Shown here: positions 30,798 to 54,441 of the stretch, piece after piece
Position numbering within the stretch: the stretch's first letter is position 1
Layout: each line of letters starts with the position of its first letter
From: a virus
Lineage: Duplodnaviria; Caudoviricetes
DNA: 64,000 nucleotides
Strand: one strand, 5' to 3'
IMG/VR virus record: IMGVR_UViG_3300032132_000439
Coordinates: 375 to 64,374 of that record
Program-made: the position numbers and the translations under genes
The notes under the pieces: model-generated
Databases searched by the model: none
Seen by the model: only the letters and a program-made list of their open reading frames with translations
What the model was told of the DNA's origin: nothing

Positions 30798-30825
30798 TTC
30801 ATTCTCCAAGTTGATTTTTTGCCAT

Positions 30826-30852
30826 AAAAAAAGCCCCAATTAAGGGGCTTTT
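30826..30852. terminator. Intrinsic terminator (possibly bidirectional)
   Basis: AAAAGCCCC-AATTAA-GGGGCTTTT. Confidence 0.75.
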
Positions 30853-30879
30853 GGTTTTGCTAATCATTTACAGATTTGC

Positions 30880-30993
30880 CTACTTTTCCGCTCTCGCGGC
30901 TGTCTCTATTTCGTCAAGGTTGCTCAAAATTCCAGCGATTTTCTCACGCATATCCCTAACTACATCTAGTATAACTTCAGTTTGTTGACTCAT
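30880..30993 (-). CDS. 37-aa helical protein under a LexA box (candidate antirepressor)
   Basis: AGGAGG RBS, MSQQTEVILDVVRDMREKIAGILSNLDEIETAARAEK. Confidence 0.55.
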   Translation of the reverse strand: MSQQTEVILDVVRDMREKIAGILSNLDEIETAARAEK

Positions 30994-31038
30994 CGCGTTT
31001 TCCTCCTGCGCGTCAGATACCGTACTCAATAGTGAATA

Positions 31039-31053
31039 GAACAAAAATAGAAC
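31039..31053 (-). promoter_or_regulatory. Alphaproteobacterial LexA (SOS) box GTTC-N7-GTTC
   Basis: GTTCTATTTTTGTTC lying between TTGATG and TATTCA (17-bp spacer). Confidence 0.75.
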
Positions 31054-31259
31054 ATCATCAATTGCAAAAAGGAATATAATCACATCAATTGAATATATTC
31101 CTATTAAGTGCACCACCCTCCCAAGTTCAATTCACTCATTAGTAATTATTAATACTTAGAAAAGGAGCGCTAACTCGCTGATCCAAATAATGTATTCAGA
31201 TTTACGCACGTATATGTAATGAGTTTGTCCGGGTTCACCAGAGCATTAACTAGGCATTT

Positions 31260-31871
31260 ATGGAACAAAACAAGATTATTACCAAAAAAAATGCATTATC
31301 AACAATTAGGGAGGAGTTCGGACTGAGCCAAGAGCAACTAGCAGAGCTTATTGATATATCACCCTCAACAATATCGCGTTGGGAGCGCGGCAAGACATTG
31401 CCGCCGCTGCTATCCGCTGTCAGCCGTAAGCATAACCGACCGCTGACATATGTGACGGCTATGGTTGATCAAGAGTTGCGGGGCAAAGTTCGTGCCTCAG
31501 AGCGCCTTGAGGCGTTGTTTCATGGCGATAACCTAATGATTGTAGAATTCAGCAAAGGCGTTCGCAGTGCTTTCCCTTTAGTTGTGGCAACAATTGGGCT
31601 TGGCATAACACCTTTCCTAAGAAATGAAACGAAGCGCGTTTTTGCAGAAAACATGCCCCAATTCTTGCGTGCAATGAACACGCCCGGTGCAAGCTGCAAA
31701 TGGTGGGCACCATACGACGGCAAGAACACAGAGAGTGGTTTGATTTCATCAGGTCTGAATATGCAGCTCTATTACATGGGGTCAAAGGTCGTTTATATGG
31801 AAGCCGCGCCCATATCAATTCAGGAAAGCTTAGAGCGACCCGTTGGTGAAATGATATTCGAAGGAATTTAG
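31260..31871 (+). CDS. XRE HTH regulator with possible PAS-like C-terminal domain (moron)
   Basis: LSQEQLAELIDISPSTISRWERG; opposite strand, AT-rich upstream. Confidence 0.75.
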   Translation: MEQNKIITKKNALSTIREEFGLSQEQLAELIDISPSTISRWERGKTLPPLLSAVSRKHNRPLTYVTAMVDQELRGKVRASERLEALFHGDNLMIVEFSKGVRSAFPLVVATIGLGITPFLRNETKRVFAENMPQFLRAMNTPGASCKWWAPYDGKNTESGLISSGLNMQLYYMGSKVVYMEAAPISIQESLERPVGEMIFEGI

Positions 31872-31895
31872 CGCCCCACTTTTGCAGGGCGCTAA
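31868..31895. terminator. Hairpin between convergent genes
   Basis: TTAGCGCCC...GGGCGCTAA. Confidence 0.6.
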
Positions 31896-31899
31896 GCAT

Positions 31900-32259
31900 T
31901 TATAGTTTGGTATAATAGTGAATTACGCGACCACTGTCAGCCGCTGTAGTGTCTTGCACAACAGCGTAGGCACCCGTCGCGCGCGTGAATGTAATATACA
32001 AGCCGCGATCTGAAACGCTGTATCCTGCAACATCTACGGTAGAGGCATCAGGATCGGTCGCGCCGGTTGTAAACACTTCGAGTTTAACCGTTTGATCAAC
32101 GCCGGGCGTTACTGAATCGGGCACGCCTCCGATAATGTCAATTACCTTTTCGTAGATTGGTTTCCCATCGACCCAAAGGCGGTCGGTTTCACGTTCGACG
32201 GCTGAATATGCCACGGGGGCTTGTACACCGCCAATTGGGACTGTGTTATTTGAACTCAT
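31900..32259 (-). CDS. Small fibre-tip-like protein
   Basis: W.DGKPIY.KV and terminal YTK motifs typical of phage fibre C-terminal domains. Confidence 0.6.
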   Translation of the reverse strand: MSSNNTVPIGGVQAPVAYSAVERETDRLWVDGKPIYEKVIDIIGGVPDSVTPGVDQTVKLEVFTTGATDPDASTVDVAGYSVSDRGLYITFTRATGAYAVVQDTTAADSGRVIHYYTKL

Positions 32260-32270
32260 TTTGAACCCCT

Positions 32271-35057
32271 TTAGGCCATTTTAGCGACGAATGTGATACC
32301 AACACTGTGATCAGCATCAGTTGTATTCAAGCGATCAAGTGTGATTTCGTTGGTGCCTGATTTGCCTGTTGCACCAGCAGCCCAGTTGAATGTCCCCGCA
32401 GAGGTGTTAACGGCAAAACCATAAACATCGTCAGCGCCAGTGACCTCAAATGAGATTGCATCATCGTTGTCACTGCGGAACCAGATTGAGTAATAGCGAA
32501 GTTTACCTTTTTGGTAGTAATTCGCATTGTTTACGTTGTACTTGCCATTAGCAGGGTTGTCGCTAGTCGTAACAACCCACGAATTACCCGCCGTTTGGTT
32601 CAGTGTGGCTTCGACAAGTGCTGTGTCGTTAACCTCAGTGATTACTTGAGGCACAAGCTTAGCGTTTGCCGCGTCCCATTCAAACGTGTCGCCATCAACG
32701 GCAGTCGATAGGTCGATTTCAACAGCTGTTGCAGGCAACACTGTCGTTTCTGGCAGTTGTTCAACCAAGAAAGTTGAACGCACTCCAAGCTCACCAAGGG
32801 AACCGCTGGAAAAATCAATACCAACCTCACTGTCAACAGCGGGCGTGAAATACACTTCCGCGCTAGGAAGAACAGATTGATTGTGCGTCGCTTTCGATGG
32901 ATGTAGATCAATCGGGTCGGTCGGCCCGATATTAGCATTTGCCGTCAAATCTACGAACCTGAGTTGCGCGGCATCACCGGTGCCAGAAGATGGAGGGAAC
33001 AACTGAAGGTGAGCAGATAAGCGGTATGTTTTACCCGCCTTAAGCCCTTGAATTGAGCCCGTGCCAGATAGTGACAGAACAGCATGAACGTCACTAAAGT
33101 GCGTTACATCAAAGCCGTAGTGAGTTGCACCGGAGTCGTTTGCCGTCGCTGAGAGGCCAACTTGAATGCGTGAAAGCGGTTCAACTGTAATGGCATCAAC
33201 TACGCTATAGCTTGGCTCAACACTGATCGAAAGCGTGTTCGCATCACGCACATAAAGCAATGACTGGGCAACGCCCGTGGACGGCTTCACATCAGTGAGC
33301 GCACCGGCTGTTGTTTGATCCAACCAATAATATTCACCAACGCTCAAACCGTGACCCGTGACAGTGACAGCGCCAACTGTTGTGATAACGAAATTATCAA
33401 CATCAACAACGCTGGTTACGATTGTGTGCGCATCCAAATCACCATCTGTTGCAACGGCTTTGACCCAGTTGGTGCCGTCGTGGTGAACCGCTTCAAGTTG
33501 TGAAAAACCGTGAGCTGTTTGGTTCACATCTTCAAGCAAGCGTGACGCTTCGCCGGAAGACACCATGCCATCACTGTCAGCAACAAGAACCCAATGCTGA
33601 CCCGTGTTTGTTGGCTTGATAAAGTGCAAGACGCGATCACCAGAGTTGTTTTGCGCCTGAGTGATTGTGCCAATCGCTGTTGCGCCATCAAAGCCCTTAA
33701 AGGCTGAGCTGAAAACAAAGTCGCGATCAATTGTATCGATGTTGCGAAGGTGAACAATAACGTCACCGAGAATACCCGTGTTACCCGTAAAGCTTTCAAT
33801 TTCACAATTGCCTGTCGAGGCATTGGAGGAAACAAAGCGGTAAGCGCCTTGGCTGTAGCTTAGTTCTTGAGGTGTTCCAGTTGCAAAGATGGATTCAACG
33901 CCTACAAAGCCGTACTTCTTTGCACTAAAACCAGCTTCATCAATTGCCCCTTTTACGTCGCCCGCCTGTTCAAAATTGACCGCGTTGCCGTCAAGTTCAA
34001 CAGTGCGAGGGCCGGTTAGTGTACCATCTGTATTGAAGATGTTTTCACTTACGGCTGGCGTTTCCCAAATAAGCTTTGCAGAGCCAGCGGGTGAAATGCT
34101 CCAAATGTGTGTGACCGTATCGGTGCCAACATCTGTGCCAGTATACCAAGCCAATGCCGGGCCAGCGATTGCACGAGCTGTGACTTCCGATTCAGTTGGG
34201 TTTGCAACATCAGAAGCCGCAAGAGTTGCCGCTGTGATAAATACATGCGCACCGGTTTGGCTGTAAAGCTTGCCATCGCCCGCTTTGACAATCTGGTTGA
34301 AAGCAACGCTTGAAATTAGGTCGTCAGGGTCAAGAGCGTGCAAGCCGTCAGAGCCGACCTTTAGCAATTGCTCAGCATCCGCTGAAACGTCTTGCGCTGG
34401 GTGCTTATGGTCGCCGCGTGCATACGTAACAGCTGAGCCAGCCGCGCCCGAGCCATCATCTGAGGCCGGTGCAATAACGTTCTCAGGGCCAACAGGTAGT
34501 AAAGTTGACAAATCCATAGTGAATGTTGACGCATCATCGCGTGTGATCGTTAGAATGCCAGATGCATCAACAGTGCCCGACATAATGCGGGCTAGATTTG
34601 TGTCGTCGAGATATAGCGACAAATCAAGGGCGGTTGGTGTGCCCGCTTCGTCGGTATATGTCAGAATGTTCGCAACCAAAGTTAGGCTAGTGAGCGTTTC
34701 TGCAACATTGTCAGTGATTGTTACAGATGCGCCGTGATCATCGGTGATCGTAAACGTGCCATCACCATTGTCGAGCGCAACAGTGCGCTTGGAATCGAAA
34801 GTAACAACAACACCGGCACCATTGTTGTGAGAGAACGTGCCGTCACCATTGTCCGTGATAACTGAGGTGACATCATTGATCGCGTCAAGTTGGGTCTTGA
34901 GCACCTTGCCTTGTTCAGCCGAAAGAGGCGACAATGCACCACCCGTGGTTAGGTTATCAATGACTTCACTTTTGCGCACCAACGATGCGCTATCTGACAG
35001 GCCGGTCGAAGATGAAACCCCACCCTCCCGGCGAGGCCGCGACGTAATCATGTTCAT
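32271..35057 (-). CDS. Large fibre/adhesin-like virion protein
   Basis: LSAEQGKVLK, repeated DNGDGTF, YARGDHKHP, HG...G..Y motifs; T/S/D-rich. Confidence 0.7.
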   Translation of the reverse strand: MNMITSRPRREGGVSSSTGLSDSASLVRKSEVIDNLTTGGALSPLSAEQGKVLKTQLDAINDVTSVITDNGDGTFSHNNGAGVVVTFDSKRTVALDNGDGTFTITDDHGASVTITDNVAETLTSLTLVANILTYTDEAGTPTALDLSLYLDDTNLARIMSGTVDASGILTITRDDASTFTMDLSTLLPVGPENVIAPASDDGSGAAGSAVTYARGDHKHPAQDVSADAEQLLKVGSDGLHALDPDDLISSVAFNQIVKAGDGKLYSQTGAHVFITAATLAASDVANPTESEVTARAIAGPALAWYTGTDVGTDTVTHIWSISPAGSAKLIWETPAVSENIFNTDGTLTGPRTVELDGNAVNFEQAGDVKGAIDEAGFSAKKYGFVGVESIFATGTPQELSYSQGAYRFVSSNASTGNCEIESFTGNTGILGDVIVHLRNIDTIDRDFVFSSAFKGFDGATAIGTITQAQNNSGDRVLHFIKPTNTGQHWVLVADSDGMVSSGEASRLLEDVNQTAHGFSQLEAVHHDGTNWVKAVATDGDLDAHTIVTSVVDVDNFVITTVGAVTVTGHGLSVGEYYWLDQTTAGALTDVKPSTGVAQSLLYVRDANTLSISVEPSYSVVDAITVEPLSRIQVGLSATANDSGATHYGFDVTHFSDVHAVLSLSGTGSIQGLKAGKTYRLSAHLQLFPPSSGTGDAAQLRFVDLTANANIGPTDPIDLHPSKATHNQSVLPSAEVYFTPAVDSEVGIDFSSGSLGELGVRSTFLVEQLPETTVLPATAVEIDLSTAVDGDTFEWDAANAKLVPQVITEVNDTALVEATLNQTAGNSWVVTTSDNPANGKYNVNNANYYQKGKLRYYSIWFRSDNDDAISFEVTGADDVYGFAVNTSAGTFNWAAGATGKSGTNEITLDRLNTTDADHSVGITFVAKMA

Positions 35058-35074
35058 AGTTTTTCCCCTGAACG

Positions 35075-35101
35075 AAAAAAGGCCCACCGATTGGTGAGCC
35101 T
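35075..35101 (-). terminator. tR'-like terminator after putative late promoter
   Basis: GGCTCACC-AATC-GGTGGGCC then T6. Confidence 0.8.
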
Positions 35102-35156
35102 CAAGATTTGGATTTTTGGAAAGTTACCACATTGGTAAATCAGACTGTTTGGAATG

Positions 35157-35696
35157 TCAAACTGTTTTTTGTATTCCCCAATAATTCGCCAAAGTGTCAA
35201 GTGCCTCAATTAGAGATTCTTGGTGATGATACCGCATAAGCTCATATGACTTTTGCCGCTCTTTGCTTTTCCGCCGGGCATATTCCGCGACCGTTGAACC
35301 ACCAAAGCACACTTGGTTTAGCAGAGATGCGGCAACACGACCGATCCGGGTGTTTGCTTGCGCTAGATCACCAGCCGCCTCAATTGCGCGATCTTGAACC
35401 CCTATTCTCGCACCGCTTGGAATGCGCGGTTCATAATCAACAGCTTTTAGGCCGCTGATTTCTGCGCTGTGGCAAAGCTCCCCGTATTTTCGCCCGGCTT
35501 GCAATTGCGCCCGGGTGATTTTGTGATGTTTGTATAACCGGCCCAAAGGGTCAGTTTTGAAATTGACGTGCGCTGTGATCTTTTCCGGTTCCCCATACGA
35601 ACCAAACTCAGGATTATCAATTTCAGCCTCTTCCACGTCAGCACCAAACACCGGCATGCGTGGCTTTGATCGCTTAGCTTTCGCCATTAGCGTCAC
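35157..35696 (-). CDS. Late transcription regulator (DUF6456 / Q-position protein)
   Basis: I...Q..AG..Y and L..ALD.LA..WG motifs; last gene before late promoter. Confidence 0.7.
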   Translation of the reverse strand: MTLMAKAKRSKPRMPVFGADVEEAEIDNPEFGSYGEPEKITAHVNFKTDPLGRLYKHHKITRAQLQAGRKYGELCHSAEISGLKAVDYEPRIPSGARIGVQDRAIEAAGDLAQANTRIGRVAASLLNQVCFGGSTVAEYARRKSKERQKSYELMRYHHQESLIEALDTLANYWGIQKTV

Positions 35697-36051
35697 CTTC
35701 GATCATGGGCGCTGAAAGGGTGATTAGGCGCGATGCGTTTAGCAAGATCGCCCGGGCTTCTGAATTTTCGCCGTGCATGTGTGCCATGCCTTGAATCATC
35801 GAGATGCACCGATCACGCTCACGGGTCATGGCCGTGTTAACAGATCGCACCGCTTGGTCCATAGCTGCAGCATTGGTCAAAGAGTTTTGGAGAACATCGC
35901 CAGATTTTTGGCTTTTGTTCAGCAGGTTTTCCAAAACCTCAATCTTTGGGCTTAGCTCACCGGTCGCTTCCTTGTGGCCTTCACGCCAACCAGCCTTGCG
36001 TGATTTCTCAAGCTCCGATTTGTGTCGAATTTCCAAAGTGCTTTCCGTCAT
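35674..36051 (-). CDS. Hypothetical coiled-coil protein
   Basis: Coupled ORF in operon. Confidence 0.55.
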   Translation of the reverse strand: MTESTLEIRHKSELEKSRKAGWREGHKEATGELSPKIEVLENLLNKSQKSGDVLQNSLTNAAAMDQAVRSVNTAMTRERDRCISMIQGMAHMHGENSEARAILLNASRLITLSAPMIEGDANGES

Positions 36052-36500
36052 TTCCGTGCAACCCTTTTCTTGCGATCAAGACCCTTGAACGCGATTTCGT
36101 CGATCTGTGGTTGTGGAAGCGTGAAACCAAATTCAGCCAGCCAATCCATGACAATGGGGGTCATGACCGTGATTGCAGCTCTTGGCGTATCCGCCTTGAT
36201 TGTGATCACCTTGTGGCCAAGCTTGCGAAAGTTCGCATGCCGCTTTTTTTGGTTTGCTGATCTGGAACCTTGCTTGGCCTTGACCTCAATGTGCCGGATT
36301 ATCTCCTTCGGGAAATATAACCTCAGATCAGGCTCCCCGGCTTGCATGCCGCTGGCCTTCGCTCTGCCCCGCTCAACCTTGCTCCGGTAAGCGCCATTTT
36401 GATCCGCCGCGAACATCAAAGGCGCTCCGGCATCGATCAAGCGTTGAAGCACTTGAGCCATGTAGGATTGAATTTGATTTTCAGAATATCGGATCGGCAA
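36048..36500 (-). CDS. VRR-NUC domain nuclease
   Basis: E..IQ, G..AG.PDL, IEVK...G..S..QK. Confidence 0.85.
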   Translation of the reverse strand: MPIRYSENQIQSYMAQVLQRLIDAGAPLMFAADQNGAYRSKVERGRAKASGMQAGEPDLRLYFPKEIIRHIEVKAKQGSRSANQKKRHANFRKLGHKVITIKADTPRAAITVMTPIVMDWLAEFGFTLPQPQIDEIAFKGLDRKKRVARK

Positions 36501-36559
36501 TTTTTCAGTTCTCCATCAACAACAGGATTGAAGGTTTACCGAATACGTGAATTGAGATC

Positions 36560-36870
36560 AAGAATTATCTGATTTGGCAATCAAGTAAAAATACTAGACG
36601 TTTTTAAAAACCACCATTTCTTACTTTCACCCTCTTATATAGATATAAATAGAAAGAGAAAAAGATAAGAAAGAACATAAAGAACACGCACACGAGAGGA
36701 TTAGTTTTATCCCTTATAGGGGAAAGTATTGAAAAGAAAAGCGTTTGTTTTCAATGGCTTATTCAGGTAATTTCCCCACTTAAATTTAGGAGGTTTTTGA
36801 AATCCTCCGATTGTTAGGTGTATAGGGGGAGCGCGAGAAAGTAGTTTAACGCGCTCCATTTTGGTGTGAA
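36560..36870. other. AT-rich purine-skewed intergenic region, candidate replication origin
   Basis: Non-coding, AAAGA repeats, directly downstream of primase gene. Confidence 0.4.
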
Positions 36871-36874
36871 AATA

Positions 36875-39379: not shown

Positions 39380-39629
39380 TGTATTTCTCCATTTACGCAA
39401 ATTTCGATATGCACAACCTCACCATATTCACCAAAAACGCAAGAGGGGGTGTGTATTGAAAAGGGTTGCAATTCTCAGTTTCGGTGATTATTGCAGTATT
39501 AATGCACCACTCAAACCCATGTAAACCAAGGCTTTTCAAAATAAGTTACCAAAAATGACATTTTTTTGTTGCATTCACTCAGGGATAAGTTAGATTACCA
39601 ATATTGAGAAAACAACTTGGAGAGATCAA

Positions 39630-39911: not shown

Positions 39912-39975
39912 TCAGAATTGAGGTTGCGCTGACTGGCATTGGCGCAACCCCAAACTTTCAACTTGGAGAATTATT

Positions 39976-41733: not shown

Positions 41734-41812
41734 AAACGCACATTGACAAACAACCCGACATTCATTCGAGTGCCGGGGATTCTTTAAACCAACTCAGTAT
41801 CTTGGAATAATA

Positions 41813-42607: not shown

Positions 42608-42614
42608 GCAAACC

Positions 42615-42640
42615 AAAGGGCGCATCATGCGCCCTTTTTC
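42615..42640. terminator. Bidirectional terminator
   Basis: AAAGGGCGCAT-C-ATGCGCCCTTTT. Confidence 0.7.
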
Positions 42641-43008
42641 TTCACCAATGCCAGCAAGTCCGCATTCAATTGAGACTGCCAACCCCTGCCCGTTAATCGG
42701 TAGTGTTTAAGCACCTCACTATCCAACCTTATTGAGATAGATTCTTTGCCCTTACCTGCAGGTAACTTAGGGCGACCACGCTTAGCCTTGGCAAACATCG
42801 CGTCTGACCATTCCGGGTTGTCAGCATCCGCCGCAATACCGGCCTGAATTTCTTGTTCCGTGATCAGTTCTCTTGGAGGAGTATTCGCCGCTCGTAGCCC
42901 ACTATATCTTACTTTTGCTTCGGCTCTAACTGCTTTAGCATCCTTTATAATAAACGAGCCGCTTCCTTGGCGGGTGTCATCATCCTTGCTCTTCGATGAT
43001 TTTCTCAT
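42625..43008 (-). CDS. brnA: BrnA antitoxin
   Basis: RGRP, ISIRLD..V...Y...G.GWQ...N..L. Confidence 0.9.
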   Translation of the reverse strand: MRKSSKSKDDDTRQGSGSFIIKDAKAVRAEAKVRYSGLRAANTPPRELITEQEIQAGIAADADNPEWSDAMFAKAKRGRPKLPAGKGKESISIRLDSEVLKHYRLTGRGWQSQLNADLLALVKKKGA

Positions 43009-43267
43009 ATTTTCGCACCTCCCTTTTGTTAGACTTTCGCAAGCTAATCACACGTATTGCATCTTCACGTATGGTGTAACAAATAGCATGTAACCGCTCG
43101 CCAATTTTCACATGGCATAACTGGCGCTCTTCACCGTCATGGTTTTGGGTAAGGCAAATCGCGCTATCCCAATCAATAAGCTTTGCGCTTTCAAACGCGA
43201 TTCCGTGCTTATCAAGGTTCTTTCGCGCCTTGTTATCGTCCCATTCATATTCAAATTCATCACTCAT
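42980..43267 (-). CDS. brnT: BrnT toxin (RNase)
   Basis: EWD..K...N..KHG..F, GEER, RVISLRK...E. Confidence 0.92.
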   Translation of the reverse strand: MSDEFEYEWDDNKARKNLDKHGIAFESAKLIDWDSAICLTQNHDGEERQLCHVKIGERLHAICYTIREDAIRVISLRKSNKREVRKYEKIIEEQG

Positions 43268-43276
43268 GTCAATAAA

Positions 43277-43288
43277 TGTATATACATT
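43277..43288. promoter_or_regulatory. Palindromic operator upstream of brnT
   Basis: ATGTATATACAT perfect palindrome 10 nt before start. Confidence 0.55.
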
Positions 43289-43415
43289 AAAACAATAATG
43301 CAACCTCAAAATGGGTACGTTTTATTGATAAAATGTACAAGATGCTTGTATATTGAGGTTGACCAAAGAATCTTCATCGCTCAGAGTGAGTACATGGACA
43401 ACTTGGAGAGCCACG

Positions 43416-44051: not shown

Positions 44052-44122
44052 CGCATTCAAGTGGTTGGAGCTTTCTTTTATACAACCGCGTAAAGAGCCA
44101 AAAGCAACACTATGCATGCAGG

Positions 44123-44156
44123 AAAGGGCTAGGGGTTCGCGCCCCTAGCCCTTTTT
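44123..44156. terminator. Bidirectional terminator
   Basis: AAAGGGCTAGGGG-TTCGCG-CCCCTAGCCCTTT. Confidence 0.8.
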
Positions 44157-44381
44157 AATTCCCATCTCCAACGCCGCCTCTTCACTGGCCTCAGAAATAG
44201 CCCTCATAGTCTCTTCCGTGTAAACACCAACTGCGATAGCCATTGCCTCAAAGAACGCCTCACGGCTTACGCCATCGAATTTAGCGCCCTTTGATTGCAA
44301 GAACGGCCCAACCTTTGCAGCGGCGCTTTTCAACGCCGCCACTTCAAAGTCTTCAAGGTTACTCAGATGGTTGTGTATCAT
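44145..44381 (-). CDS. Hypothetical protein (DUF6511-like)
   Basis: E..A...A....G.FL...G pattern. Confidence 0.5.
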   Translation of the reverse strand: MIHNHLSNLEDFEVAALKSAAAKVGPFLQSKGAKFDGVSREAFFEAMAIAVGVYTEETMRAISEASEEAALEMGIKKG

Positions 44382-46239
44382 CTAACGCACTCCATCTTGC
44401 AAGGCCATCAACCTCTCCCGGTTGACTTGTCGCGATCTTGCGGCGCTTTAACCGACCAAGGCAATCATCAACAACCGTGTAAAGCTGGCCGGTTACGTCC
44501 ATGATATCCTCAATACGCACCCCAACCGCTTGTTGTTTCAACACCTCATAAACGATGCGATCCGCGCCATTGGAGAAAGTGCCGGGCGCATCATAAAGGA
44601 AAGACTTAACGCGCGTGTAGCTGCCATCCTCTTGCACAACAATCCGGTCAGGACACCGCAAAGACTTAGCCCGAACAATCGCCTCACTGGTTGTGCTTGG
44701 GTAAGGCTCCTGCCCGCCGTGCGCAGTCCACCAGCGTTCAGCCATCTTGCGCGCGCCACCAGCATGCTCAAAACAAACCCATTCAGGAATAGGCGCGGAT
44801 TTCTTGACGCTTGGAATGTAATACCCAACCTTCATGCTCGTTGCGGCACCCTGCTTTTCATGGCGCTCAAATGTCCATGTTCGGCAAAAAGCTCCAGGGA
44901 GATTGGCCGCACGTTCATCCTCAAAGTGGCCTTGGTTTTTAAGCAAAGCGCGCGTGTCCGCCGTCCGATCGATCTTATCAGTTTCAACCGGCTCAGGGAA
45001 AACATACCCGCACTCATAACATTCACTGCATTGGATCGGCAAAATTGTACGGCAAGACTCTTGCGGGCACACTTTAACCGGCGCGTCCCCCACTTTATCG
45101 CTCTCAGAGCGCCGTTTCTTGGTTGGTGGTGGTTGCACATCATCAATAGGTCCGTGGCGCTTCACGTTGCCCGCAAAGTCCAACACAAGGCAATTTGTTT
45201 TGCCGGTGTCCGGTGAGATCCGCAAACCACGGCCAACCATTTGTTGATATAGCCCGGGGCTGGCTGTCGGGCGGCATAGAGCGACCAAATCCACGTTTGG
45301 TGCATCAAAGCCCGTTGTGAATACATTTACGTTCACAAGGCACCTCAGCTCACCGTTTTTGAACCGGCGAACCATATCCTCACGCTCACCTTTGCTTGTG
45401 GAGCCGGTTACGCATTCAGCGCCGAAGCCGTGGCCATCAAGCAAGTGCGTCAGTTGCTCCGCGTGATCAATGCTTGATGCAAAAACCAAGATGGACTTGC
45501 GATCATGGCCAACCTGAACGATTTCATTCACGACCGCCGCGTTGGTATCAAGCGTGTTCACTAGCTGATCAACTTGGGAGCTGTTGAAATCACCGCCTTG
45601 ATAGTTGATTGCCCGCATGTCGAATGTTGTGCGCATTGCCTTTGGAACAACCGGGCTAAGATAGCCGCGTGAAATCAGTTCACCAACGTTCACTTGATAG
45701 GCAATATCATCAAACATTGTCTCGTCAGTGTCGCCATATAGCAAACCACAATCCAAGCGATATGGTGTGGCGGTTAGGCCTAATGAACGATAGTTTTCAT
45801 GATGACGTTTTGCATCTTCAAACATGCGCCCGTACATCGTGTTAGATTTCGGGTTAATCGTATGAGCTTCATCAACGATGAATAGATGCGCTCCCCCGAT
45901 TTCATCAAGCTTGTTGTAAATGGTTTGAACGCCACCAAAGAGAATTTGAGCGTTACGGTCACGACGGCCAATGCTTGCGCTGTAGATGCCAACCGGCGCT
46001 TGTGGCCATAGGGAAAGCAACCGCTCCAAGTTCTGCTCAAGCAGCTCTTTTTGGTGCGTCACGCATATAATCCGCATGCCGGGATACATCTCAAGCGTCC
46101 GTTTGCAGATTTCAGCGTTGATCACCGATTTACCGGCGCCGGTGGCCAAATCGAGAATTGGGTTGCCGCCTACTTCACGCCAATATGTAAAAGTCGCGTC
46201 AACTGCAGCTTGTTGATAGTCGCGCAAAACATAATTCAT
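44359..46239 (-). CDS. DEAD/DEAH SF2 helicase (RadD/YejH-like)
   Basis: LRDYQ, ATGAGKS, DEAH, TATP, TGFD.P, QM.GRGLR, C-terminal Zn ribbon. Confidence 0.95.
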   Translation of the reverse strand: MNYVLRDYQQAAVDATFTYWREVGGNPILDLATGAGKSVINAEICKRTLEMYPGMRIICVTHQKELLEQNLERLLSLWPQAPVGIYSASIGRRDRNAQILFGGVQTIYNKLDEIGGAHLFIVDEAHTINPKSNTMYGRMFEDAKRHHENYRSLGLTATPYRLDCGLLYGDTDETMFDDIAYQVNVGELISRGYLSPVVPKAMRTTFDMRAINYQGGDFNSSQVDQLVNTLDTNAAVVNEIVQVGHDRKSILVFASSIDHAEQLTHLLDGHGFGAECVTGSTSKGEREDMVRRFKNGELRCLVNVNVFTTGFDAPNVDLVALCRPTASPGLYQQMVGRGLRISPDTGKTNCLVLDFAGNVKRHGPIDDVQPPPTKKRRSESDKVGDAPVKVCPQESCRTILPIQCSECYECGYVFPEPVETDKIDRTADTRALLKNQGHFEDERAANLPGAFCRTWTFERHEKQGAATSMKVGYYIPSVKKSAPIPEWVCFEHAGGARKMAERWWTAHGGQEPYPSTTSEAIVRAKSLRCPDRIVVQEDGSYTRVKSFLYDAPGTFSNGADRIVYEVLKQQAVGVRIEDIMDVTGQLYTVVDDCLGRLKRRKIATSQPGEVDGLARWSALDDTQPSE

Positions 46240-46532
46240 GAGCGCAAACCTTGGACGCGGAAGACGGAAGCGTTGTGCGAGAAACCTTCAAAAACGCCGT
46301 TGTCTGCCATGCGCATAATCCAGCTTTTTAGCGCGTTGACCGGCAAGCGCAATTCAGCGGCCAGATCAAGAAAGCGCATTGAACAAATACCGCATTCAGC
46401 AATTCGTTTTTCAATGATTGATTTTGGTGTTGCTTTAATGGTTTTCGGCTTACGTGTGCGCGTGTATTCAACACCGCAATCGCTAGGCCAGTCAAAACGC
46501 GGCGGAACCGCAATAGCTAGATAATCAGTCAT
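46236..46532 (-). CDS. Hypothetical wHTH-like protein
   Basis: Start follows CTGGCA hairpin + CAACTTGGAGG. Confidence 0.55.
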   Translation of the reverse strand: MTDYLAIAVPPRFDWPSDCGVEYTRTRKPKTIKATPKSIIEKRIAECGICSMRFLDLAAELRLPVNALKSWIMRMADNGVFEGFSHNASVFRVQGLRS

Positions 46533-46593
46533 GTGACCTCCAAGTTGAAAAGAACCGGGGACGGTGCCAGCCGCACCCGGTTTGTTGTTTGTT

Positions 46594-46716
46594 TTAGATA
46601 CCGGCTAGCTTTCGCATTGCCTTGAGCTTGCTGATTTCAAGAATGTTCCAAAAGAACCGGAAAGCTAAGGCAAGCATACCGACCACAATTAGCCATAAGG
46701 TGATGTCAAAAAGCAT
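46594..46716 (-). CDS. Small membrane peptide (not in ORF track)
   Basis: MLFDITLWLIVVGMLALAFRFFWNILEISKLKAMRKLAGI. Confidence 0.5.
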   Translation of the reverse strand: MLFDITLWLIVVGMLALAFRFFWNILEISKLKAMRKLAGI

Positions 46717-46717
46717 T

Positions 46718-47266
46718 TCAATGATCATAGGTAGCTCCCGCTTTATCCAATCGCGCAATCACGCTTTCGGCTTGGTTTAGTGCATCGCTGAGAGCATCGT
46801 GCTTTGTGCCCGTGTACTCAATTTCAGCGTCAGTTCCCCAAAACGCCTCAAGCGTCCGTACGCTTCGGGTTTGGTGGTATCTCCAAGGCACCGATAAATC
46901 GCAAAGCTCATAGGCTTTAGCCAAATGCGAACAATCAAAATCCGGGTCTTTCGCCCACACATGTTGCGGTCGGTGGTTTTGGAAAAGTTCACTAAGACGA
47001 TAGAGCGCCGAACCTATCGAGTAGCCACCTGTCGCAATTTGCGTGGCAAACAGCTCAACGTCAGTTTCCGCCCACCACTGCAGTGTTGAAAGGTCAATTT
47101 TCATGCCCATCGCAACGCACGATTGCGGGTCGATTTTCAAGTTAAGCTTTGAAATCATCTTGCCGTCAGGCAAAGTCGGATCAAAGACAACCGCGCCAAT
47201 TTGCGTGATCACTGAGCCGGGCTTTAAGCCAAGGTTTTCAATGTCAATCATAATGTGTTTTGACAC
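46718..47266 (-). CDS. 3'-5' exonuclease, DEDDh (DUF5051-like)
   Basis: MIDIE, IGAV.F, FD...L, H.AL.DA..QA. Confidence 0.9.
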   Translation of the reverse strand: MSKHIMIDIENLGLKPGSVITQIGAVVFDPTLPDGKMISKLNLKIDPQSCVAMGMKIDLSTLQWWAETDVELFATQIATGGYSIGSALYRLSELFQNHRPQHVWAKDPDFDCSHLAKAYELCDLSVPWRYHQTRSVRTLEAFWGTDAEIEYTGTKHDALSDALNQAESVIARLDKAGATYDH

Positions 47267-47271
47267 GGCGG

Positions 47272-47484
47272 TTACTCCAAAAGCTCATTGATGCGCTTTG
47301 CGATGCGCTCGGCTTTTTCTTTGTCGCTAAATGCAAGCTCATTATCGACCTCAAGATGATCGATTTTTTGCTTGTTTGTGGCGATTTTGGCCGCTTTCTT
47401 TTCAGCCACTTTCACCAAGTCAGTTGCGACTTTTTGCAAAGTCCCGATTGCCTTATTCAAGGTCAGATTTGCCGCTAGTTCCAT
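47272..47484 (-). CDS. Small coiled-coil protein
   Basis: Start follows CAACTTGGAGAG. Confidence 0.65.
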   Translation of the reverse strand: MELAANLTLNKAIGTLQKVATDLVKVAEKKAAKIATNKQKIDHLEVDNELAFSDKEKAERIAKRINELLE

Positions 47485-47485
47485 T

Positions 47486-47782
47486 CTATCTCTCCAAGTT
47501 GATTTTGCGTCCAGCCGGTGGCCCGGCTAATGCATTGTTGATATTCGGAGCGGTGCAATGATCATGGATCAAGTTGCCCACTACCCGGCGCAGTTCGTTT
47601 TCTTCAAAGATTTCCAGCCGGGTTGAAAATCTTATTGAGGCCATGCGGTTGATCGCATCGAAAACCTCAAGATCGACCAGCGAAAACTGGTTGGTTAGTT
47701 TGAAAATTGATGTTCCATTCGCAAAGCGGCGGAAGATTTCAACCTTCTTTTTTTCTGAAATGGTGGCGCTATATTCATGCAT
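47486..47782 (-). CDS. Hypothetical HTH-like protein
   Basis: MHEYS start overlapping upstream stop. Confidence 0.5.
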   Translation of the reverse strand: MHEYSATISEKKKVEIFRRFANGTSIFKLTNQFSLVDLEVFDAINRMASIRFSTRLEIFEENELRRVVGNLIHDHCTAPNINNALAGPPAGRKINLER

Positions 47783-48797
47783 TATCGCCACCCCGATTTT
47801 CCGGGTTGTCCGTAATGTCGCGGCCAGCCTTTTCATCTTCCCCAACCGCTTCCGGTGGTCCATCAATGAAGGTTTCGCCGTTATCCAAGGCGTAAGTAAT
47901 TGTGCCCGCATCTGGGTCCGCGTCGATCTGCTCACCCGGCACAAAGCAAGGGTTGAAAAGGTGGCCTTCACAACCGGCCAATTGCTCGTCGCGGTTTAGT
48001 GGCTTGCTGTGCTTTTCGCACTGCCATGAGCCGTAATCTTTATGAGCAAGCGGAGTTACGTGGATGCATGTGCGGCAAGAGCGTGTTTGAACAAACTCCC
48101 CGCCTTTGCAGATGTTTTTGTAATCGCAGAAGCGGCACGACCAAAAGTCAGGATCATCGGAGACACGGCTTGGCGCGTCGTCAGTGTAAACAATCGATTC
48201 AACGCGGTTGAAAAGATGCTCGCAAAAACCCTGATCATAATCGATAACAATGCTCATTACCGCGTCAGTGTTCTTGTTAACCGCAAGGTAAAGGCATTTC
48301 TTATAGCCGGTTAGGTGCATGTAAGATTGACACTGAATGAAGTGTTCCGGCTTATGCTCTTTCAGCCCCTTTTTAATCAAAGCGTCCCAACTCTTTTGGT
48401 TGTGTGATTTGCACTCCACAACAACCCATTGGTCGTCAATGCCGGGTACATTGTGTGCAACGCCATCAAGCAACCCCCGGGCATGCCCACCAACGCCCCT
48501 AACGCGCATCTGACGGCCTGTGTCTGGATCGTGGGTGATAACTGTTGCCCCGGCCCCGGCAAGCCCCTCAAGCAAGCGCTCTTCATGGATTTCACCAGTT
48601 TCAAACAAGCGGCACATTTTGCCATCAAATTGTTTGGGAGGCGTGGCCCAACGAAACGCATAAAATGGCGCTCGGTTGCAATCCGATCCAAGCATTGAAA
48701 GGCTAATACCGATTGAACCATATGGCTCACCGCGCTTGGCTTGCGAGTAATCGTAAATTTTGTTTGCAACGGGGTCCGTATCTGGTATTTCAACCAT
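47775..48797 (-). CDS. Cas4-like PD-(D/E)XK exonuclease
   Basis: S..G..C.R, G...E, G..DG, ECKS, Q.Q.YM, C.FC....C. Confidence 0.88.
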   Translation of the reverse strand: MVEIPDTDPVANKIYDYSQAKRGEPYGSIGISLSMLGSDCNRAPFYAFRWATPPKQFDGKMCRLFETGEIHEERLLEGLAGAGATVITHDPDTGRQMRVRGVGGHARGLLDGVAHNVPGIDDQWVVVECKSHNQKSWDALIKKGLKEHKPEHFIQCQSYMHLTGYKKCLYLAVNKNTDAVMSIVIDYDQGFCEHLFNRVESIVYTDDAPSRVSDDPDFWSCRFCDYKNICKGGEFVQTRSCRTCIHVTPLAHKDYGSWQCEKHSKPLNRDEQLAGCEGHLFNPCFVPGEQIDADPDAGTITYALDNGETFIDGPPEAVGEDEKAGRDITDNPENRGGDNA

Positions 48798-48890
48798 AAT
48801 AAAAAAATCCCATGATGTTTGCTCTCCAAGTTGACGTTGTGGTGATGGTTGGCCGGGCGAGGGATGCCAGTCCCTATGACCCCGGCCTTT

Positions 48891-49079
48891 TTATTGCCCG
48901 GATTTTTGCTTGGTTATGAAAAACGCCGCTTTGTCTTTGAGGGCTTGTTTGTTGTTCACCAATTTTCGATAGTCAGGCAGGGAAACAACGTCCCTGCCCT
49001 CAATTTCCACCAGCTCCGCATCATTGGTGATCACATCTTGGAACACCTTCGGTAGTGGGGCTTGATGTGTGACTACCAA
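48891..49079 (-). CDS. Hypothetical protein
   Basis: Coupled ORF. Confidence 0.5.
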   Translation of the reverse strand: MVVTHQAPLPKVFQDVITNDAELVEIEGRDVVSLPDYRKLVNNKQALKDKAAFFITKQKSGQ

Positions 49080-49615
49080 GGTTGTGCGCCATTATTGGCG
49101 GTTTGCGCTGGCGTGTCGGTTGCGCCGTTCATATGCGGTGGCTTTTCACCAGAGGCCGCATTTTGTGCCGGAGCCGTTGCCGCTGACGGGTGAATGAAAT
49201 GCTTGATTTCATTGCTCGCCTCATAGCCGTTTTTAGGCGGGTTAACTGCAAGCTCAACAATGAAAGGCAAGCCAATCAATTGATCAGTTTCACCCGGTGC
49301 ATTCTGACCAAAGCCCGTTGCAATACTGGCTTCACCGTAAAGGCGGCGACCTTTGCGCGCATAACCTTCGCTCGGGTGAACCACTGGGTAACGGAACAGG
49401 ATTTGCCGCCCTGCTTGGTCACCGTCAGTGATTTCAATCATCATGTGTACGGTGTACTTGTCAGTATGCTCACCGTTATCAATCGCCTCTTTCTCTTTAG
49501 GCGCGCGGCGGGAAGCTATGAATTTGCCGGGGTATTTGCCAGCCGGGATTGGTGTAAAGCGATCCGCGTCAATTGCCTCTTGTGCATCAAATCCGCCATT
49601 AGGTAGTGCTACCAT
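49073..49615 (-). CDS. ssDNA-binding protein (DUF669-like)
   Basis: P.PAG.Y, I.DG...GR, NEIK, flexible tail ending PW. Confidence 0.82.
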   Translation of the reverse strand: MVALPNGGFDAQEAIDADRFTPIPAGKYPGKFIASRRAPKEKEAIDNGEHTDKYTVHMMIEITDGDQAGRQILFRYPVVHPSEGYARKGRRLYGEASIATGFGQNAPGETDQLIGLPFIVELAVNPPKNGYEASNEIKHFIHPSAATAPAQNAASGEKPPHMNGATDTPAQTANNGAQPW

Positions 49616-49666
49616 TTTAAATCTCCAAGTTGTTGCGTAAGGGTGCCAGCCCTTACATTTCGCCGG

Positions 49667-50599
49667 TTAAGCGGCTGGCGTTTCAGTTGTTGTTGATTGG
49701 GTGTCAGGCGCGCCGTTGTCGGCAAGCTGCTCCGCTTCAACGGCGGCGCTAGCCTCTTGCTCTTCCGTAAGCACTGGCTCAGGTATTGCGGTTGGTGGCG
49801 TATCCATGCCCGGGAAGTAATCGGCCAAAACCTTATATCCCTGAGCTTCGTGATAAACGACCTCAGTAGGTGTTTTGTAACGCGACTTAGCGACAAACCC
49901 CGGGCGCTCTTCAAGATAGATCACGCGGGTTCCGTGGCCTTCCGCGTGGCTATGTTTCTTGTTGAAGCCACCCTCTTGCGTCTTGATGACTTTTTTCTGA
50001 TTAATGAAGCCAACCATATCAACATCATCAACAAGAAGATCGACCACCTTTTTGTGAAGGCGCGGAACATAGCGGTCATAACCTTCCGTTCCCGGCTCGT
50101 CGAAACGCTTAATGTCAAAGTGCGCTAAGATCACAATGGCCATGTTGCGAACGGTGCGCAGCTTGTTGAGCATGCGTAAAACGTCAGCGAACTTGTCTTT
50201 ATAGGCGATATAGCCTTTGCCATATCCCGGCTCTTCAATGTCAGGCCAACCGTTTTCAGCGCAAACTTTGCTGATAATCATCGGTTCAAGCTTGTCGATT
50301 GTGTCGATCACAAGGGTTTTGCGATCATGGGGCTCAGTGCCCAACATGCGCAAATAATCGACAAACTGATCATAACCAGTGCCTTTAATGTCCTGCCCGT
50401 CACCTGTTTTGGAATCTTGCACAAGTGGAAAACTGAAAACCTCAGTATCCGCTGGCAACCCCTCCTCAGTGAAGATGAAAGCCGGGTTGGGAAATTCGCT
50501 TGCAAGGCTGGTTTTCCCAAGCCCTGCAGTGCTGTAGAACAAACAACGCGGTGGCTTCACGTTCTTTGTTGTCTTCAACATTTCCATTAATTTTGCCAT
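49667..50599 (-). CDS. Sak4-like AAA ATPase recombinase (AAA_24)
   Basis: G.GKTSLA, TLVIDT.D.LE, GYGKGY, AK.RY. Confidence 0.9.
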   Translation of the reverse strand: MAKLMEMLKTTKNVKPPRCLFYSTAGLGKTSLASEFPNPAFIFTEEGLPADTEVFSFPLVQDSKTGDGQDIKGTGYDQFVDYLRMLGTEPHDRKTLVIDTIDKLEPMIISKVCAENGWPDIEEPGYGKGYIAYKDKFADVLRMLNKLRTVRNMAIVILAHFDIKRFDEPGTEGYDRYVPRLHKKVVDLLVDDVDMVGFINQKKVIKTQEGGFNKKHSHAEGHGTRVIYLEERPGFVAKSRYKTPTEVVYHEAQGYKVLADYFPGMDTPPTAIPEPVLTEEQEASAAVEAEQLADNGAPDTQSTTTETPAA

Positions 50600-50715
50600 T
50601 TTCTAACTCTCCAAAAATGTAAACAAATCGTTACGTTTTTGCGTAATTGGTATTTTTTTGCTTGCAATAAACGCCTGAGCGTATAGAAGATTAGGCTGCA
50701 ATAAAAAAACGACGC

Positions 50716-50759
50716 TTACCAAATCGGTAACATGCTGCAAGAATTATCAATATTGGTAA
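50716..50759. promoter_or_regulatory. Operator pair in divergent switch region
   Basis: TTACCAAATCGGTAA and TATCAATATTGGTAA between Sak4 and repressor. Confidence 0.65.
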
Positions 50760-50805
50760 TTTTTGCAAGCGACAAAATCATAAATAGTGGAGTAAAAATA
50801 CTGTA

Positions 50806-51456
50806 ATGTTAGAACAAGCCAGTACAATCAAGAGGTTACGGAAATTACGCGGCTTAACTCAGGGTGATTTAGCCCAGCTAATCGCAGAGAATACCGACCT
50901 CGAAACAACAACCGCCACGATTTCACGCATTGAGCGCGGTGATCGCCAGTTGACCGCAAAATGGATCAAGGCATTTTCGCAAGCGCTTGAGGTTGATGAA
51001 TACACAATCATAACGGGCAAGGCCGACATACCGGAAAGCACCGGCGAAAGCTCAGGCATTCCCGTTGCCGGAAGATTGAGCGCTGAAACGTGGTCGAGTA
51101 GCAAAGCTAGCAAAAGCGCATTCAAAACGGTTCCGGTTATCCCAACCGACGAATATAGAGACTATTCACATAGCGCTTTTGAGCTGGAAGAAAACAGCGG
51201 CGTTGAGGAGCTAACGAACGGGTGTGCTATTACAGTTCCCTATTACGATGCGCGGGTGAACCCAACACCCGGCGATCTGGTTGTTGTTCGCTTCACTCAA
51301 GGCGCGCAACCTGAGCGTATTTACCGCACTTGTGCCGGGGAATTAATTCGTGATCGCCTCACAAATACCGTTCAGCTTAGCGTGGCCGGGGTTTTGTACG
51401 AAGTGGAAAAAGCCGACCTATTGGGTAAAATTACTGCAATTTATAGACAAGTTTAA
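50806..51456 (+). CDS. CI-like repressor (XRE HTH + degenerate S24 domain)
   Basis: LTQ.DLA, TISRIERG; IPVAGRLSAE, GDLVVV. Confidence 0.85.
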   Translation: MLEQASTIKRLRKLRGLTQGDLAQLIAENTDLETTTATISRIERGDRQLTAKWIKAFSQALEVDEYTIITGKADIPESTGESSGIPVAGRLSAETWSSSKASKSAFKTVPVIPTDEYRDYSHSAFELEENSGVEELTNGCAITVPYYDARVNPTPGDLVVVRFTQGAQPERIYRTCAGELIRDRLTNTVQLSVAGVLYEVEKADLLGKITAIYRQV

Positions 51457-51518
51457 TAAAAAGGTTGACATAATTCACCGTATTGGTAAATTTTCCAAAT
51501 CAACTTGGAGAGGCCCAT

Positions 51519-52136
51519 ATGGATTTACACCACGAAACGGCTGGCACCGTTTTCAACAAAAAGATGATTTCAGGTCGGCTTGTCGATATCCTGAACCCAA
51601 CGACGGATGATATAATTTTCAGTGATATCATTCACGCGCTTTGCGGGATAACTCGATACGACAACCACACAACGCGCCCAGTTATGCTTTCTGAGCATTC
51701 CCTATATGTCGGGCATTTGATGCGAAGCATCGCCCCGGTGGGTGAGCGGGAAGAATATCAGCGCCACGGGCTTGCGCATGATTTCCACGAATACGCGCTA
51801 GGCGATCAAACAACGCCGGTGAACAAGGCTGTAACGCACCTTGCTGGCATTGATGGATTTGGGATGCTCAAGGCGCGTTGGGATTCTGTGATCTTTGAAG
51901 CCCTTGGAATGACCCCACCAACTGACGCAATAATTGAAGCGGTAAAATGGTGCGACCGGCAAGTTTTCATCGCTGAATATCAAGCGTATATTTACGATCC
52001 TAAGCCGACCGATATTGGCCTTGAAGAATGGCCAGACGACATTGTGGATTTGGACAAAATGCGCGATTCATGGCTTCACATTTCCCCACATCGAGAATTT
52101 GCGCGCATAGCTGTTAAGTGCTTCGCAAACATCTAA
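51519..52136 (+). CDS. HD-family phosphohydrolase (YfbR/YfdR-like)
   Basis: DI.HAL....R...H, EHS, HD.HEY..GD..TP. Confidence 0.88.
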   Translation: MDLHHETAGTVFNKKMISGRLVDILNPTTDDIIFSDIIHALCGITRYDNHTTRPVMLSEHSLYVGHLMRSIAPVGEREEYQRHGLAHDFHEYALGDQTTPVNKAVTHLAGIDGFGMLKARWDSVIFEALGMTPPTDAIIEAVKWCDRQVFIAEYQAYIYDPKPTDIGLEEWPDDIVDLDKMRDSWLHISPHREFARIAVKCFANI

Positions 52137-52182
52137 CACGGCTGGCACCGTGAAAATCTGACTATCAACTTGGAGAACTAAA

Positions 52183-54354: not shown

Positions 54355-54441
54355 TAATTATTGGAAATCAACAGCTTAGCGTGGCTAACCTACCTAAAGG
54401 TCACCATCGCCATCGGGCTCAGGCACGTTTTCTGAAAGTGT

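Follow-up and report, generated by a model that had tools for sequence, protein, structure and literature searches.

A repeated start-associated sequence, often behind a fixed-loop hairpin, in a prophage of a Maritalea-like bacterium

Cluster K mycobacteriophages carry start-associated sequences (SASs), which a 2011 study reported as ~11 to 19 copies per genome with the 13-bp consensus GGGATAGGAGCCC; upstream of about half of the sites lies the extended SAS, a conserved 17-bp imperfect inverted repeat (PMC3203893). This inverted repeat carries a SigA-like promoter, and a DNA-binding protein has been proposed to bind it (PMC11373665). As late as 2024 to 2025, papers described the role of the SAS as "ill-defined" or as requiring verification by experiment (PMC11373665, PMC12699233). 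Here, we describe a repeat with similar features, the 10-mer CAACTTGGAG, in a 64,000-nucleotide (nt) stretch (referred to as the window) of a tailed-phage record, IMG/VR IMGVR_UViG_3300032132_000439 (positions 375 to 64,374), most of which is a prophage. An earlier note, made from the sequence alone, had pointed to the repeat and likened it to the SASs of cluster K, a likeness that holds feature by feature except for the sequence and the upstream element.

Other systems offer points of comparison. A dimer of CsrA/RsmA binds one GGA in a hairpin loop and another at the Shine-Dalgarno (SD) sequence. In phage T4, RegB cleaves GGAG, and RegA represses the translation of early mRNAs. Citrobacter phage Mordin, a Felix O1-like myophage, has a 26-bp repeat before eight hypothetical genes that its authors called reminiscent of the SAS (PMC4611695). 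The PeSL cassettes of T4-type phages consist of a promoter and a terminator, are ~70 bp long, and recombine (PMC2839356). A limited literature search on start-associated sequences, with intergenic, SD, and stem-loop terms, returned no description of modules like those reported here in alphaproteobacterial phages, which is not proof of absence.

A ten-base sequence before start codons of the prophage

Like the SAS, CAACTTGGAG is a short asymmetric repeat present in at least 10 copies. An exact search of the full window found 10 of them, five on each strand. In the control, consisting of 100 dinucleotide-preserving shuffles, the mean was 0.16 copies and the maximum 2, and none of the 100 shuffles reached 10. 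CAACTTGGAG was also the most overrepresented 10-mer in the whole 64,374-bp record. Nine of the 10 copies were followed by an A, giving an 11-mer, and six shared the 12-mer TCAACTTGGAGA. The conserved block can be written W-CAACTTGGAG-A and has sharp edges at 10 to 12 nt; no conservation was found 3' of the ATG or more than 2 bases 5' of the block.

As with the SAS, which lies a few nucleotides before starts in the orientation of the gene and prefers ATG, all 10 copies were in the sense orientation of the next gene and 5 to 10 nt ahead of an ATG. Six copies have a spacer of 7 nt between motif and ATG; in the other four, it measures 8, 10, 5, and 6 nt. The earlier note had listed these 10 copies and this spacing, and both were confirmed without exception. 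Nine of the ATGs open open reading frames (ORFs) of 70 to 205 codons, and the remaining one, at 48813, begins a frame of only 7 codons that extends over the ATG of an exonuclease gene (48797; 340 amino acids [aa]). This short frame holds a run of seven T's, and its stop lies 4 nt past the exonuclease ATG; judging from the sequence, it could be a coupling upstream ORF, or the T run could hide a frame error that makes 48813 the true exonuclease start. Downstream of the exonuclease gene, an unlisted 98-aa ORF (47486-47782, minus strand) begins at an ATG overlapping the stop codon of the exonuclease gene, and 1 nt separates its end from the ATG of the next gene. It had no Pfam match, and the motif copy at 47492-47501 sits in its last codons.

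The exact copies were confined to 30.8 to 52.2 kb, with none in the structural module at 1 to 24.5 kb; the SAS is similarly restricted to the nonstructural genes of temperate phages. The copy at 30804-30813 stands at the head of an operon that runs into an HNH-type endonuclease gene and a neck/tail-completion gene. That the motif-bearing genes are early, as the earlier note had it, is inferred from their predicted functions only. Among the 21 GGAG-type starts of the phage, 8 had CAACTT ahead of GGAG and 12 had TT. The earlier note had also named variants of the motif near 12941, 25189, and 50607. These sites (12940-12946, minus strand; 25192-25198, plus strand; and 50608-50614, minus strand) lie before start codons, as the ribosome-binding sites (RBSs) of other phage genes, and what they share is only TTGGAGA(G). 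Weaker TTGGAGA variants precede four genes in the first 26 kb, three of the structural module and an amidoligase-like gene. The latter and the ORF that follows it (24976-26799, plus strand) lie between the genes for terminase and a ParB-like protein and are transcribed in the direction opposite to the late genes on either side; the start chosen for the amidoligase-like gene, 25207, has the RBS TTGGAGAG.

GGAG is an SD core, and CAACTT contributes nothing to pairing with the Maritalea 16S tail. In two Maritalea genomes, the 16S rRNA has the 3'-terminal sequence ...GGATCACCTCCTTTCT, and this tail was used in place of the host's own. The duplex with it had an energy of -6.4 kcal/mol both for GGAGA alone and for the full motif, compared with -15.2 for a fully complementary SD sequence. 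The earlier statement that CAACTT is unexplained by anti-SD pairing was thus borne out, the energy being the same with or without CAACUU. Elsewhere in the Maritalea 16S rRNA, only the 6-mers TCTCCA and AAGTTG match, which is at chance level. An SD core accompanied by conserved positions unable to pair with 16S rRNA is found in the SAS as well.

Upstream hairpins with a fixed loop

Hairpins with a CTGGCA hexaloop precede five operon-internal copies of the motif (39959, 46547, 48833, 49632, and 52166). They end 3 to 26 nt before the motif, and their stems, of 4 to 11 bp, are unrelated in sequence. Six of the 43 CTGGCA sites in the window form hexaloops on stems of at least 4 bp, compared with a mean of 0.58 and at most 3 across 200 shuffles. 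All six are located within 39.9 to 52.2 kb, on the strand of the gene. Three hairpins have the 12-mer GGCTGGCACCGT in common. A module with a CTGGTA loop was found in the late region, before an ORF (ATG 12934) that lies downstream of the sheath and tube genes. Upstream of the 39613 copy, a promoter-like TTGCAT/TAGATT pair was seen by eye. The coordinates of all features are listed in Table 1.

A covariance model of hairpin and motif was built from six window modules. These six scored 33 to 52 bits with it, the best score among 151 family genomes was 26.7 bits, and none of the matches read in those genomes was convincing. Rfam gave no match at gathering score in the window and two weak, chance-level matches in 39.4 to 52.8 kb at E values of up to 5. 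As a separate observation, the loop and closing pair of four hairpins, GCUGGCAC, are complementary to GUGCCAGC, found at position 460 in the 16S rRNA of Maritalea (L162); an 8-mer match of this type is expected ~0.02 times by chance.

About half of the sites thus have a second upstream element, as with the SAS, and in both cases its consensus differs between phage subgroups. The partner here is a free-stem, fixed-loop hairpin, whereas that of the SAS is an inverted repeat of conserved sequence; the repeat itself also differs from GGGATAGGAGCCC, as do the host phylum and the virion type. The Mordin repeat likewise lies upstream of starts in a myophage of a Gram-negative host; in the published consensus, its 3' part, AAACTGGAGAATCTA, is similar to CAACTTGGAGA. 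That repeat is longer (26 bp), no hairpin was reported for it, and the phage is unrelated.

Table 1. Positions of motif copies, hairpins, and other features in the window
Feature	Position	Strand	Description
Motif copy	30804-30813	-	ATG 30797; 104-aa ORF (30483-30797), product without assigned function, begins MKKKRLSKALL
Motif copy	39613-39622	+	ATG 39630; 93-aa ORF, first of rightward operon divergent from primase gene; without hairpin
Motif copy	39959-39968	+	ATG 39976; 112-aa ORF
Motif copy	43399-43408	+	ATG 43416; 87-aa ORF; without hairpin
Motif copy	46538-46547	-	ATG 46532; 98-aa ORF; end overlaps helicase gene (44359-46239) at the latter's start
Motif copy	47492-47501	-	ATG 47484; 70-aa ORF; upstream hairpin has loop GCCA, not CTGGCA
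Motif copy	48824-48833	-	ATG 48813; 7-codon ORF overlapping ATG 48797 of Cas4-domain exonuclease gene (47775-48797)
Motif copy	49623-49632	-	ATG 49615; 180-aa ORF resembling single-strand DNA-binding protein
Motif copy	51501-51510	+	ATG 51519; 205-aa ORF matching deoxyribonucleoside 5'-monophosphate phosphatases
Motif copy	52166-52175	+	ATG 52183; 177-aa ORF
CTGGCA hairpin	39922-39949	+	11-bp stem (G-U pairs allowed); 9 nt before 39959 copy
CTGGCA hairpin	46553-46582	-	4-bp inner stem, loop, 7-bp outer stem, then TTCTTTT, then motif
CTGGCA hairpin	48860-48875	-	5-bp stem nested in longer GC stem; 26 nt before motif
CTGGCA hairpin	49636-49657	-	8-bp stem; 3 nt before motif, between AAA_24 gene stop (49667) and next gene
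CTGGCA hairpin	51534-51553	+	7-bp stem; inside codons 6 to 12 of 51519 ORF
CTGGCA hairpin	52137-52152	+	5-bp stem; 13 nt before motif
Late-region module	12932-12978	-	10-bp stem, CTGGTA loop, then AAACTCTTGGAGAG, then ATG 12934 (100-aa ORF); 33.4 bits
Terminator-like hairpin	~30829-30852 (approximate)	-	GC stem and T run just upstream of 30804-30813 copy; loop not CTGGCA
Sigma-70-like promoter match	43325-43354	+	10/12 positions; 45 nt upstream of 43399 copy; consensus match only
Sigma-70-like promoter match	51465-51492	+	TTGACA, 16 nt, TAAATT, with TG; ends 8 nt before 51501 copy; consensus match only
TTGGAGA-type RBS	50608-50614	-	AAA_24 gene (49667-50599), first gene of leftward operon
TTGGAGA RBS	656-662	-	
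TTGGAGA RBS	14876-14882	-	
TTGGAGA RBS	25192-25198	+	
Likely right prophage end	54306-54385		80-nt stretch 85 to 96% identical to Maritalea chromosomes; adjoins integrase gene

Host genomes, distant relatives, and genomic setting

The window is prophage from position 1 to ~54.3 kb, and only ~54.3 to 64 kb is host DNA, which looks Maritalea-like; the host is a marine alphaproteobacterium. The earlier note had drawn this boundary wrongly, and its "host part" consists mostly of phage late genes. Its statement that the motif is absent from the host part is literally true, as the 9.7-kb host flank holds no exact copy; since 1 to 54.3 kb is all prophage, however, its contrast with 1 to 30 kb compares early with late phage genes. 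In three Maritalea genomes (3.1 to 3.6 Mb), we found 7, 2, and 4 copies (13 in total), compared with 6, 5, and 0 (11) for a reversed-pattern control. Each of 243 genomes of the host's family had at most 7 copies, which is at chance level, and the copies listed were scattered over contigs. An ATG followed 5 to 9 nt downstream in 74 of 362 family copies (20%), compared with 16.8% for any GGAG in 400 kb of Maritalea chromosome. Of the hexamers upstream of the 115 GGAG-type starts in those 400 kb, none occurred more than twice, and TT preceded GGAG in 14 of the 115. As judged from these counts, which for the motif are like those of the reversed control, the idea that it is common before host genes did not hold, and the view that CAACTTGGAG is not a host feature is supported. 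The SAS is rare in or absent from its host; the corresponding figure here is 2 to 7 copies per Maritalea genome, like the control, with the host represented by its relatives and the 9.7-kb flank. One family genome (G114) carries a 22-nt string, the motif plus GTCATTGGGATG, on four contigs, which is probably a repeated mobile gene.

No close relative of the phage was found. A nucleotide search of 50,697 phage records gave no match, and the closest proteins, ~40% identical, belong to phages of Proteobacteria and cyanobacteria. IMG/VR, searched with exonuclease, terminase, and primase peptides, yielded terminase relatives of at most 41% identity, and the primase matched only the record itself; a search of a metagenome collection with the primase was also negative. 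Distant relatives with a homologous exonuclease (38 to 44% identical) were found in the family genomes and in IMG/VR, and four of them carry clear modules. A clear module was defined by at least three ACCA-loop hairpins followed by SD and ATG (G106, L342, and L362) or, for G063, by a repeated pre-SD motif. The prophage in G106 has the gene order AAA_24, exonuclease, helicase of the window, according to tblastx. It contains 10 modules, each composed of an ACCA-loop hairpin, TACCA, 1 to 3 bases, GAGGAG or GGAGA, and ATG. The loops, clear in 9 of the 10, measure 6 to 9 nt and contain ACCA, mostly as the heptaloop CYACCAA (YYACCAR type). Modules of this type also occur in G063, L342, and L362, and the exact pre-SD consensus is particular to each of them. 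A repeated start-linked 9-mer of the ACCA/SD type was seen in only two, L342 and L362, of the 43 IMG/VR loci that measure at least 9 kb, and no such modules were found in G121 and G182. In the prophage of the latter, a distant relative, a contig (L181; G182:C16) holds GGAAAGAAGG eight times within 240 bp at ~7.76 to 8.0 kb, on both strands; this array is iteron-like and not linked to RBSs.

When CTGGYA-loop hairpins followed by SD and ATG were counted, the 84 relative loci gave 0 of 50, versus 6 of 7 in the window. In our reading of the sequences, the loop may echo the word beside the SD, as CUGGCA/CUUGGA here and CCACCA/CCACCA in the relatives. Such shared architecture with different letters fits a co-evolving reader. 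To look for the window's own letters elsewhere, the pattern CTGGCA N5-35 CAACTTGGAG was scanned in IMG/VR and the stricter pattern GGCTGGCACC in IMG/VR and metagenomes. The former occurred in at least 118 IMG/VR loci with one or two copies each, and the two-copy loci that were read had these copies inside coding sequence. The latter gave 1 chance match in IMG/VR and 31 matches in metagenomes, with the full module only in L210. This 5.9-kb metagenome contig (58% GC, with a ParA-like gene) is unrelated and plasmid-like. Its module runs from a hairpin with an 8-bp stem and CTGGCA loop through 7 nt, an exact CAACTTGGAG, and 7 more nt to the ATG of a 37-codon ORF. In this part of the contig (4193-4350, minus strand), the ORF behind the module is hydrophobic, is followed by a terminator-like hairpin, and has no Pfam match. 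Sigma-54 promoters obey a GG-N10-GC rule. A sigma-54 promoter reading of CTGGCAC was rejected, with GC found ten bases after GG in none of seven hairpins (six in the window and that of L210).

The record is a linear virus record with a CheckV completeness of 77%. In the window, 1 to 24.5 kb holds a myovirus-type structural module on the minus strand, with genes for terminase, portal, sheath, and tape measure proteins. Genes for primase, helicase, two exonucleases, a single-strand DNA-binding-like protein, an AAA_24 protein, a helix-turn-helix repressor-like protein, and a nucleotidase occupy 36.8 to 52.7 kb, and the integrase gene lies at 53014-54036. Helix-turn-helix regulators are encoded at two places, 50806-51456 and 31260-31871. 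A toxin-antitoxin pair (PHROG "ribonuclease toxin" and antitoxin) at 42625-43309 (minus strand) forms an accessory module between two rightward operons. ARAGORN found no tRNA in the window. To the right of the integrase gene, the stretch at 54306-54385 is probably a remnant of the attachment site, from its similarity to Maritalea chromosomes. The next 3.3 kb, between 54.4 and 57.7 kb, have no counterpart in three Maritalea loci, and nucleotide synteny with Maritalea extends from 57.7 kb to the end of the window. The Kef-type transporter encoded there (58.9 to 60.8 kb) is 82% identical to its Maritalea porphyrae counterpart.

Possible roles of the repeat and its hairpin

We favor the reading that CAACTTGGAG(A) may be a start-associated, two-part mRNA element through which a phage-specific reader controls the nonstructural genes as a set, and from the sequence evidence we give it a probability of about 0.5. 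Judged by its position, strand, and spacing and by the ATG rule, the motif belongs to the translation initiation region of the mRNA; the combination of free stems and a fixed loop speaks for RNA and not for duplex DNA. The extra letters find no explanation in 16S pairing or in a host-wide preference, and their wholesale replacement, along with that of the loop, in a syntenic relative fits a lineage-specific reader. GGAG is the SD core of a ribosome-binding cassette at a working distance from the ATG, and the six bases ahead of it and the A that follows are kept in ten genes though unable to pair with the 16S tail. Operon-internal genes have the cassette behind a short hairpin with a free stem and a CUGG(C/U)A hexaloop; genes behind a promoter-like site have it without a hairpin. 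The hairpin loop and the pre-SD letters would together form a two-part RNA site. A lineage-specific reader, most likely a phage RNA-binding protein and less likely an RNA, would set the translation of the group and perhaps also the stability or processing of each cistron. What the sequences show is the anatomy, its statistics, the absence of the element from genomes of the host's family, and parallel modules in relatives; we infer the action on RNA, the trans-acting reader, and the direction of its effect, which could be activation, repression, or cleavage. Such a site would resemble that of CsrA/RsmA in combining a loop-presented motif with a similar single-stranded motif at or beside the SD, but the loop letters here are not of the GGA type. 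Likewise, the targets of RegB and RegA include many early start regions containing GGAG but are not a fixed 10-mer.

Several observations weigh against this two-part element. The sole public run that holds this DNA is a DNA metagenome. No match to RegB (PF10715), to the RegA family, or to CsrA (PF02599) was found in the 77%-complete record, nor was CsrA found in the three Maritalea genomes; the RegB-like option raised in the earlier note therefore has no homologue in this record. Scans of ~55 window ORFs against PHROGs and Pfam gave no candidate reader, and ~20 small window proteins had no family match. Because the record is 77% complete, the reader could lie outside it. The two-part pairing is frequent and not obligatory, as three copies (39613, 43399, and 51501) lack a hairpin, no motif follows the hairpin at 51534-51553, and the copy at 47492 is embedded in coding sequence. 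Both sides of the common stem carry changes at all five pairs, but the hairpins were chosen because they pair, so this count is descriptive and not independent evidence. Clear modules were present in only 4 relatives among the 84 loci scanned (47 of them at least 9 kb long), and none of the 4 shares the letters of the window. Within-genome gene conversion could give the same uniformity without a reader. Finally, 7 of the 13 Maritalea copies serve as RBSs, namely those of the gene for ribosomal protein bL25 in all three genomes, of an aminotransferase gene (two copies), of a GST-like gene, and of CobK, which means that the start site works with the host machinery alone.

These host RBSs speak for a purely cis-acting strong start, in which CAACUUGGAGA would be a good unstructured ribosome-loading site (S1 or standby binding) and the hairpin would insulate the start and protect the 3' end of the upstream cistron, with no reader involved. 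Five further phage genes, the sheath gene among them, have TTGGAGA as their RBS, and all ten starts are ATG at near-optimal spacing. We nevertheless regard this explanation as unlikely. The 10-mer is not enriched in family genomes, where its ATG-adjacent share (20%) compares with 16.8% for any GGAG, and the 115 GGAG starts of a host relative have no preferred upstream hexamer. A single host optimum would not predict that prophages in genomes of one host family use other fixed pre-SD letters, and the conserved loop is left unexplained. It is distinctly unlikely, in our view, that the hairpin and RBS cassettes are recombination linkers, that is, module boundaries homogenized by phage recombination, whose uniformity would reflect gene conversion and not function. 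Many of the flanked genes are small ORFs without a known family, the phage encodes an AAA_24 protein, a single-strand DNA-binding-like protein, and a Cas4-type exonuclease, an identical module occurs on the unrelated plasmid-like contig L210, and three hairpins share GGCTGGCACCGT. The PeSL cassettes offer a precedent, being small repeated regulatory cassettes with a stem-loop among small nonessential genes (PMC2839356). Unlike in those cassettes, only 10 to 12 nt and a 6-nt loop are common here, and the conserved part is an RBS. The flanks show no graded similarity, conversion tracts would copy the stems too, whereas these differ completely around identical loops, and the phage record, IMG/VR, and metagenome searches found no relative close enough to show shuffling.

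Cleavage by an endoribonuclease, either in the linker between hairpin and GGAG or in GGAG itself as by T4 RegB, would leave the upstream message protected by the hairpin and the downstream start activated or inactivated. The layout of stop codon, hairpin, A/U-rich linker with motif, and start is consistent with this, and the three hairpin-less copies lie in promoter-bearing regions (two by scan matches and one by eye), which fits the hairpin as a mark of processed ends. The prophage does carry a ribonuclease-type toxin with its antitoxin, but the pair looks like an ordinary accessory module, and no RegB family match exists in the record. The exact conservation of ten bases goes beyond the known specificities of RNase E-type enzymes. 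We consider cleavage improbable. Highly improbable is a DNA-level transcription signal, whether recognized as a promoter element by a phage-directed polymerase or sigma factor or bound as an operator by one of the two helix-turn-helix regulators that the phage encodes (50806-51456 and 31260-31871). CAACTTG is a near-palindrome around its central base, and CTGGCAC resembles the -24 element of the sigma-54 promoter consensus. The orientation, however, is always that of the gene, at 5 to 10 nt from the ATG, no conserved second promoter element follows downstream, and a loop that stays fixed while the stems vary speaks for a folded single strand and not for a duplex operator.

What is new here is the hairpin partner, together with the other wordings found in relatives. 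The repeat is an independent SAS-like case in a different bacterial phylum, and the RNA-hairpin-like partner, together with syntenic relatives that use other letters, makes the SAS question testable. If the favored two-part mRNA element is extended beyond this phage, alphaproteobacterial temperate phages might possess a two-part RNA operator with which a phage RNA-binding regulator switches the whole nonstructural set, and operator and reader would co-evolve into dialects that exclude one another (CUGGCA and CAACUUGGAG in this phage; YYACCAR and an ACCA-rich pre-SD sequence in the relatives). We offer this wider proposal tentatively, as a possibility that more probably fails than holds. Exchanging loops or pre-SD letters between dialects could reveal a private phage layer of translational control. 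If true, the two-part operator would give the unexplained SAS of mycobacteriophages a counterpart in Gram-negative bacteria that is tractable; if the repeat is merely a strong start site, it would be a compact, portable expression signal for marine Alphaproteobacteria.

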